A stretch of DNA of 34,633 nucleotides. Origin: Escherichia coli (GTDB lineage: Bacteria > Pseudomonadota > Gammaproteobacteria > Enterobacterales > Enterobacteriaceae). The stretch lies in assembly GCF_003334815.1 (NCBI RefSeq), contig NZ_QOWO01000038.1; one strand, 5' to 3'. The notes beneath the pieces were generated by a model. That model was given only the letters and a program-made list of their open reading frames with translations. It was not told where the DNA came from and searched no databases. The stretch's first letter is position 1, and every line of letters begins with the position of its first letter. A program made the position numbers and the translations under genes. Positions 21,444-21,734 of the stretch are shown in pieces.

Positions 21444-21734
21444 ATGAAATTAAAAATAGTTGCGGTGGTTGTAACTGGTTTGTTAGCTGCGAACGTAGCA
21501 CACGCTGCCGAAGTCTATAACAAGGATGGTAATAAACTCGACCTTTATGGCAAGGTTACCGCTCTACGTTATTTTACTGATGATAAGCGTGACGATGGTG
21601 ATAAAACTTATGCCCGTCTCGGCTTTAAAGGAGAAACGCAAATCAATGATCAAATGATTGGTTTTGGTCACTGGGAATATGATTTTAAAGGCTATAACGA
21701 TGAAGCCAACGGCTCGCGCGGCAAGAATCTCTGA
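21444..21734 (+). pseudogene. yddL: Truncated OmpC/PhoE-family porin gene (N-terminal 96 codons only)
   Basis: Translation has a signal peptide plus the conserved porin N-terminus ([17 protein letters not shown]...RLGFKGETQ...WEY), then stops after 96 aa; full porins are about 350 aa. Confidence 0.8.

Follow-up and report, generated by a model that had tools for sequence, protein, structure and literature searches.

Why does the porin gene that follows yddG end after 96 codons in this Escherichia coli genome, and what became of the rest of it? The gene, yddL, is an ATG-initiated reading frame on the + strand (21444 to 21734, with the TGA stop codon at 21732 to 21734 in the ORF list) within the stretch of 34,633 nt that was analyzed as a whole and is called the window here. 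The gene order, fdnG (on the − strand), yddG, yddL, yddK, yddJ, narU, and narZ, is that of the K-12-type locus, and the 2.2 kb between yddG and narU is 99.9 to 100% identical to K-12-type E. coli chromosomes. K-12 yddL (b1472), a pseudogene in EcoGene and RefSeq and an N-terminal fragment of the OmpC/F/N family, lies at the same locus, and biologically there is no difference between the two; for K-12-type genomes, the RefSeq/PGAP label reads "porin; incomplete; missing C-terminus." Hence, yddL is an already annotated porin pseudogene, and the difference between O157 and K-12 at this site has been published as O-island 62. What we add to the known annotation is the junction at base level, the direction of the event, and the allele frequencies. 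We conclude, with a probability of roughly 0.9, that yddL is a dead remnant, namely, the 5' 276 nt of an ancestral yddG-linked porin gene that was cut by a deletion of about 1.55 kb.

A porin N terminus followed by four unrelated codons

The features of the locus are given below by their positions in the window. L001 and L003 denote the intact reference loci, from O157:H7 strain SRCC 1675 and strain SCU-102, respectively; LRR stands for leucine-rich repeat.

20303 to 21184, + strand: yddG, an EamA/DMT-family exporter and the conserved left neighbor of the porin gene (ORF list and RefSeq annotation)
21185 to 21443, + strand: yddG-yddL spacer, the one-time porin promoter and 5' untranslated region, with an AAGGA ribosome-binding site 5' of the ATG (sequence; 26 to 27% GC)
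21444 to 21506, + strand: yddL signal peptide, codons 1 to 21 (starts of mature PDB chains; AF2 helix at residues 3 to 15 of the intact allele)
21507 to 21719, + strand: porin-derived mature part of yddL, codons 22 to 92, comprising the N-terminal segment and three transmembrane beta-strands and ending in loop L2 (100% nucleotide identity to the intact alleles of L001 and L003; AF2)
21719 to 21721, + strand: deletion junction (blastn pieces and base-by-base view)
21720 to 21734, + strand: yddL codons 93 to 96 (GKNL) and TGA, from the interior of the first LRR gene, one base off the LRR frame
21758 to 22714, + strand: yddK, a fused LRR gene remnant whose start codon is an internal Met codon of the LRR gene upstream (ORF list; tblastn)
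22033 to 22044, + strand: second deletion junction, with 653 bp lost between the 12-bp direct repeats CATTGATTTATC, fusing two LRR genes (collinearity with L001)
22753 to 23088, + strand: yddJ, the 3' end of an espR1-type LRR gene (comparison with the ORF of ECC-1470; annotations)

The 96 codons of yddL comprise a 21-residue signal peptide, 71 porin residues, and the 4 unrelated codons. Mature porin chains in the PDB start at yddL residue 22, which identifies residues 1 to 21 as the signal peptide. Residues 1 to 90 match OmpF, OmpC, OmpK36, and PhoE (E = 2.5e-29 to 5e-24), and residues 22 to 91 align with PDB porins at E values of 1e-24 to 1e-29, a match far beyond chance. On the NCBIfam model NF007841 (OmpC subfamily), yddL reaches 126.6 bits over model positions 1 to 89 of 368 and stays below the curated cutoff of 484 bits, which the intact allele of O157 exceeds with 495.8 bits; NCBIfam has no separate OmpD model, so that all yddG-linked porins were scored under the OmpC subfamily model. 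The ORF list and the PDB and NCBIfam matches thus agree with the first-pass annotation, which had described a signal peptide and a conserved porin N terminus with a stop at codon 97. The spacer upstream is collinear with the spacer 5' of the intact porin (96 to 97% identity); a scan of it for promoter and terminator consensus sequences yielded 9 promoter-like sites, with 9.0 expected from shuffles.

Elsewhere in the window, a SECIS_3 element (Rfam RF01989, 84.3 bits) is found inside fdnG at 19431 to 19489 on the − strand. The ORF list breaks fdnG at about 19484, which would fit if the in-frame stop there were the UGA codon for selenocysteine in formate dehydrogenase-N.

An intact porin gene at the same site

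Both L001 and L003 carry a porin of 366 aa at the yddL site, named "OmpC" by PGAP, with LRR genes including espR1 downstream. The protein has the motif LPEFGG at residues 130 to 135 and the C terminus ...ITYQF. A 366-aa porin 3' of yddG is present not only in O157 and SCU-102 but also in six more E. coli strains, in Escherichia albertii, and in other genera. In a scan of one genome per species, the order fdnG-yddG-porin was retained in E. albertii, Citrobacter, Enterobacter, Lelliottia, Intestinirhabdus, and Salmonella enterica subsp. arizonae. Amino acid identity is 92% for E. albertii and 69% for S. arizonae (locus L034).

In E. albertii (L005, 4867 to 8790), yddG, the intact porin gene, and narU follow each other without LRR genes in between, and homology to E. 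coli picks up again at L001 6728. Together with the order in the other genera, this arrangement indicates that the porin is ancestral at the site and that the LRR block, which spans about 3858 to 6727 of L001 and has a GC fraction of 0.34, was added in E. coli.

A close parallel is OmpD (nmpC) of Salmonella, a member of the same porin family whose gene likewise follows fdnG-yddG. Synteny and similarity together suggest that yddL descends from a porin of the OmpD type. The ompD gene has been linked to yddG, also functionally (Santiviago 2002, as cited in PMC4215857). Salmonella OmpD is full length and abundant, whereas yddL keeps 92 codons only. The ompD gene is, however, missing from S. Typhi (PMC4215857), just as the porin at the yddL site is broken in K-12-type E. 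coli. In Citrobacter koseri (L087, 4001 to 5099), the porin gene after fdnG-yddG is split into ORFs of 130 and 222 aa, which represents an independent inactivation of the same ancestral gene. Another porin gene of K-12, nmpC of the DLP12 prophage, is cut by IS5 and has no C-terminal end. It resembles yddL in being a K-12 porin pseudogene without its C-terminal part, but it is prophage borne and disrupted by an insertion sequence, whereas yddL results from a clean deletion.

Loss of about 1.55 kb has brought porin codon 92 next to LRR DNA

Alignment with the intact orthologous loci, proposed in the first-pass annotation as a way to map the lesion, placed it precisely. In blastn, window positions 20303 to 21727 correspond to L001 1619 to 3042 (98.0% identity), 21719 to 22044 to L001 4579 to 4904 (97.9%), and 22033 to 24800 to L001 5546 to 8302 (95.4%). 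Read base by base, the K-12 type is without L001 3036 to 4580, that is, 1,545 bp, and the loss relative to L003 is 1,547 bp; the junction lies at 21719 to 21721. Microhomology at the junction amounts to "CG" for an O157-type progenitor and "G" for an SCU-102-type progenitor. Such short microhomology, of only 1 to 2 nt, argues for illegitimate recombination rather than repeat-mediated loss. The junction connects porin codon 92 to the interior of the downstream LRR gene, out of frame: the DNA that specifies codons 93 to 96 of yddL encodes ...LDVS(R/Q)... in the LRR frame of intact strains.

The site has been described before. Okeke et al. (2011, PMC3079680) reported O-island 62 of strain EDL933 (1,548 bp, orfs z2239 to z2242) between yddG and narU, with an equivalent island in enteroaggregative E. 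coli 042, and noted that yddL is like the 5' end of z2239 and yddJ like the 3' end of z2242. Z2239 is the intact 366-aa allele of this locus; over the first 276 nt, it does not differ from yddL, and the published length of the island agrees with the deletion of 1,545 to 1,547 bp mapped here.

The same study attributed the disruption of the ancestral island in K-12 to an insertion of yddK, in other words, to foreign DNA that broke the porin gene, and the low GC content of the DNA 3' of the junction might be taken in favor of this. The comparison of the loci makes such an origin barely credible. The K-12-type locus is about 2.2 kb shorter than the intact type, not longer, and all bases of yddK and yddJ are collinear with LRR DNA that already lies 3' of the intact porin gene (97.9% identity to L001 4579 to 4904 and 95.4% from L001 5546 onward). 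The segments of 1,545 and 653 bp that are absent from the K-12 type gave, when compared with the window by blastn, no significant match other than the 12-bp repeat at the second junction, and neither insertion sequence ends nor target duplications are present at the yddL junction. Collinearity thus contradicts the insertion of yddK, and two deletions account for the K-12 state instead. A sequencing or assembly artifact, or a laboratory mutation of one strain, can be dismissed as the cause of the early stop: 3,138 complete genomes, assembled independently and of human, animal, and environmental origin, share the very same junction.

We infer the following order of events. A low-GC cluster of espR1-type LRR genes would have arrived between the porin gene and narU in the E. 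coli lineage. Later, illegitimate recombination would have deleted about 1.55 kb: porin codons 93 to 366, the DNA between the two genes, and the 5' portion of the first LRR gene. The outcome would have been a fusion of porin codon 92 to out-of-frame LRR DNA, giving GKNL and a stop codon.

The missing part of the porin gene is gone rather than moved

By eye, the first-pass annotation had discerned no porin C terminus downstream of yddJ and had considered the missing part deleted or replaced rather than displaced. The tblastn search that it called for found none either. When the intact 366-aa allele was compared with all six frames of the whole 34.6-kb window, only residues 1 to 92 were matched (E = 7e-56), the next best hit having an E value of 2.8; residues 93 to 366 used alone gave nothing better than E = 2.8 in any frame of the window. 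In megablast, the 824-nt 3' part of the porin gene matched only 1,119 of 5,426 complete E. coli genomes, and among the matches listed, the matching DNA always lay under a porin annotated at the yddG-narU locus, either an intact "ompC" or, in one strain, a 3' fragment. Displacement of the 3' part to another place in the genome was therefore rejected. Intact strains carry 1,545 to 1,547 bp more at this point; with no remnant in the window and the 3' part absent from genomes of the truncated type, the missing part is gone and has not moved.

The downstream LRR genes are rearranged as well

In tblastn, yddK shows 97% identity to L001 4618 to 4905 and 89% to the espR1 part. Loss of a single A near 22705 in the K-12 type separates yddK from yddJ; this is the sole indel relative to the intact 443-aa ORF of strain ECC-1470, and RefSeq treats yddK and yddJ together as one frameshifted LRR pseudogene. 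The uninterrupted 443-aa LRR ORF is kept in the truncated-allele strains ECC-1470, STEC005, 96_1414B, and ECO8855.

In STEC005 (L096, about 1530 to 1570), the junction reads CGCGACAATCTC instead of CGCGCGGCAAGAATCTC, which places porin codons 1 to 92 in frame with the 443-aa LRR ORF and predicts a chimera of signal peptide, porin, and LRR sequence. This variant junction is found in only 1 of the 5,426 genomes, which points to a one-off secondary mutation or an assembly error.

The truncated allele is the majority state in E. coli

Matches were counted per genome when they covered at least 80% of the query. A 200-nt probe spanning the junction was present in 3,138 of the 5,426 complete genomes, i.e., the truncated allele makes up about 58%, and the 824-nt 3' part of the intact porin gene was present in 1,102 at this coverage; about 1,100 genomes, O157:H7 among them, thus have the intact 366-aa porin at the yddL site. 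The retained 276 nt (codons 1 to 92) were found in 4,260 genomes, close to the sum of the two. About 1,160 genomes had neither the junction probe, nor the 3' part, nor the 276-nt segment.

The gap between yddG and narU is only 272 bp in the ST131 genome that was examined (L004, 5915 to 6186), which we take to belong to phylogroup B2. Relative to O157, this genome is without L001 2585 to 6727, a loss of 4.1 kb that includes the porin promoter, the porin gene, and all LRR genes; on the right, the loss stops where the LRR block stops in the comparison with E. albertii. Among the matches listed, ST95 and other ST131 genomes had only about 186 nt just 5' of narU, as expected from a loss of the ST131 type. 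The yddG-linked porin gene has thus been affected by different lesions: a split inside the gene in C. koseri, the 4.1-kb loss in ST131, and the 1.55-kb 3' deletion in the K-12 type. Judging from strain names, phylogroups A, B1, and C would typically carry the truncated allele and phylogroups D, E, and F the intact one, with complete loss being typical of B2, in agreement with Okeke et al. (PMC3079680).

Rearrangements confined to a single genome were seen at the yddG-narU locus in strain 144 (canine), NZ_CM148361.1, and NZ_OY754443.1: one of the three has the porin 3' end only, one has yddL-proximal sequence beside narZ, and one has IS3 and IS1A in the yddL-yddK region. Matches to the yddL region were also noted at 4 to 25 places on records labeled plasmid.

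The retained segment is nearly invariant in truncated and intact alleles alike

The retained 276 nt are identical in the K-12 type, O157, and SCU-102, while the same strain pairs differ by 1.8 to 2.6% in yddG and by 3.1 to 3.9% in the spacer. At least 99% identity was seen in 4,235 of 4,268 records for the retained 276 nt, against 1,321 of 4,281 for the 259-nt spacer and 1,346 of 5,405 for the last 276 nt of yddG. Across 13 alleles, the retained segment has 5 variable sites in 276 (all singletons), compared with 26 in 259 for the spacer and 48 in 882 for the whole of yddG. In eight intact genes, nonsingleton polymorphisms number 0 in nt 1 to 276 and 23 in nt 277 to 1101, the first being located at nt 279, at the junction. 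O157 and SCU-102 differ beyond codon 92 by 14 synonymous and 2 nonsynonymous codons and by none before it; the expected number for the first 92 codons is about 4.7 (P of about 0.01). Window positions 21407 to 21720, comprising the ribosome-binding site region and codons 1 to 92, are in fact almost monomorphic in about 4,260 genomes, intact and truncated alike, with deep haplotype differences both upstream, in the spacer and yddG, and in the porin gene beyond codon 92; on its right side, the tract ends at the deletion junction. E. albertii, on the other hand, differs at 39 of the 276 nt, including 27 codons with synonymous changes, which means that the segment is under no nucleotide constraint between species.

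The tract may represent a recent recombination tract or sweep, or gene conversion between the truncated and the intact allele, halted at the point where their homology stops, may have produced it. As to a broader proposal, that the segment of about 310 nt (roughly 21407 to 21720) is younger or more constrained than its flanks owing to gene conversion or to selection for an exported peptide or RNA even in truncated strains, we give it an outside chance at most. Strains of the truncated type are 99.3 to 100% identical over the 2.2 kb, and the fragment has zero differences from intact alleles, which leaves a test for selection on the fragment without power.

Could the truncated transcript act as a regulatory RNA, e.g., as a decoy for the porin-targeting small RNAs RybB and MicC? 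Such a role, if true, would account for the conservation of the 5' 276 nt at the nucleotide level, and the unusually low diversity of the retained segment would fit it, as would the pairing of the RybB seed with GCAGUGGC at +19 to +26 of the orthologous porin mRNAs in relatives. The retained segment presumably spans the whole region in which such small RNAs act on Salmonella ompD. Yet the RybB site has been weakened to GCGGUGGU in E. coli, and in a hand comparison with S. arizonae, the MicC site at codons 23 to 26 contains mismatches in the E. coli allele. The duplexes that MicC and RybB form with the yddL 5' region are no better than those with shuffled sequence, with 0.087 and 0.41, respectively, of the shuffles at or below the observed energy (the sequences of both RNAs were confirmed by Rfam and by BLAST matches of 100% in the genomic surroundings expected for them). 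The divergence of E. albertii likewise speaks against it. We rejected the decoy on the duplex energies and regard a regulatory RNA at this locus as very improbable.

The fragment has lost what a porin needs to assemble

To place the breakpoint in the fold, we used an AF2 model of the intact allele (37-sequence alignment; mean pLDDT, 73.6; pTM, 0.74). The model has strands at residues 22 to 25, 31 to 45, 54 to 66, and 71 to 83, a loop at 84 to 94, and the next strand at 95 to 105. The breakpoint at residue 92 falls in this loop, L2, in the model, and yddL keeps 3 complete transmembrane strands of 16 (31 to 45, 54 to 66, and 71 to 83). The fragment shares with functional general porins (PF00267) the N-terminal signal peptide and the conserved start of the mature chain, AE(I/V)..., but its 96 aa compare with about 340 to 370 aa and a 16-strand barrel in a full-length porin. 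The constriction loop L3 (PEFGG, within residues 130 to 135 of the intact protein) lies inside the deleted segment and is missing from yddL, as is the C-terminal strand ending in Phe: yddL ends in ...GSRGKNL, the intact protein in ...ITYQF. Without L3, the C-terminal Phe, and 13 of the 16 strands, the product cannot form a pore. At the same time, yddL bears the marks of a pseudogene, with a full-length syntenic homologue in relatives and an identifiable lesion, the deletion of 1,545 to 1,547 bp.

The C-terminal beta-signal is needed for BAM-dependent assembly of porins, and unassembled outer membrane proteins are degraded by DegP. If yddL is transcribed and translated, Sec would export the product, and removal of the signal peptide would leave 75 residues. 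With its ribosome-binding site, start codon, and signal peptide preserved, yddL could plausibly give rise to a secreted fragment of this size; 71 of the 75 predicted mature residues would be porin derived, and 4 would come from the out-of-frame LRR gene. Without a beta-signal, this product would not be expected to be assembled by BAM into a pore, and its probable fate is degradation in the periplasm.

A different view has been put forward in a paper that lists yddL as uncharacterized and mentions its pseudogene status in EcoGene: yddL was speculated to encode a four-strand outer membrane protein linked to osmotic stress (Biol Direct 2023, PMC9976479). More broadly, yddL might be a functional small exported protein, either a beta-hairpin or a four-strand outer membrane or periplasmic protein, with an osmotic or envelope role. 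The ORF, ribosome-binding site, and signal peptide are indeed intact in thousands of genomes, with the same ORF in the 3,138 that carry the junction; the near invariance of the retained 276 nt can be read as constraint; and published support comprises a co-occurrence argument (PMC9976479), a change in the yddL transcript in a microarray study (PMC2817434), and the placement of yddL among genes with few transposon insertions in a TraDIS study (PMC5821084). None of these observations demonstrates a function, however. The invariance extends to intact alleles and does not set the truncated ones apart. Codons 93 to 96 and the stop codon stem from the LRR gene, out of frame, three strands cannot close a barrel, and the YQF beta-signal is gone. 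Farther downstream, the LRR gene has itself undergone a deletion and carries a frameshift in the K-12 type. A yddL deletion strain of the Keio collection is viable and was screened (PMC11502571), and its existence implies that the gene is dispensable. The low insertion density is about what would be expected for a region of 26 to 40% GC if it is silenced by H-NS and may reflect AT-rich, probably H-NS-bound DNA. In our literature search, we found no published work directly on H-NS binding at yddL/yddK.

The distribution of related proteins points the same way. In a search of 5.8 billion proteins, the only 96-aa clusters were P0001, with 1,186 E. coli members that are 99% identical, and P0007, with a single member. 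All other matches to the yddL protein were PF00267 porins or partial porins of many lengths. A conserved family of small proteins was the finding that, according to the first-pass annotation, would speak against a porin fragment. P0001 is specific to E. coli, and outside this species, every relative is a full or partial PF00267 porin; an independent small-protein family was therefore rejected, the 96-aa homologues not being conserved across species. Taken together, the reading of yddL as a four-strand outer membrane protein is not supported by the present data, and we consider any function as a small exported protein improbable.

Implications

Our comparison corrects the published model of a yddK insertion, in that the K-12 state arose by deletion. 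It also argues against treating yddL as an uncharacterized four-strand outer membrane protein or as an essential gene; more probably, the remnant has no function. The yddG-linked porin of the OmpD type appears to be ancestral in the Enterobacteriaceae and is missing or disrupted in the K-12-type majority of E. coli, in ST131, in C. koseri, and, according to the literature, in S. Typhi. This repeated loss is of modest interest for porin evolution, for phage and antibody targets, and for differences in permeability between E. coli lineages.
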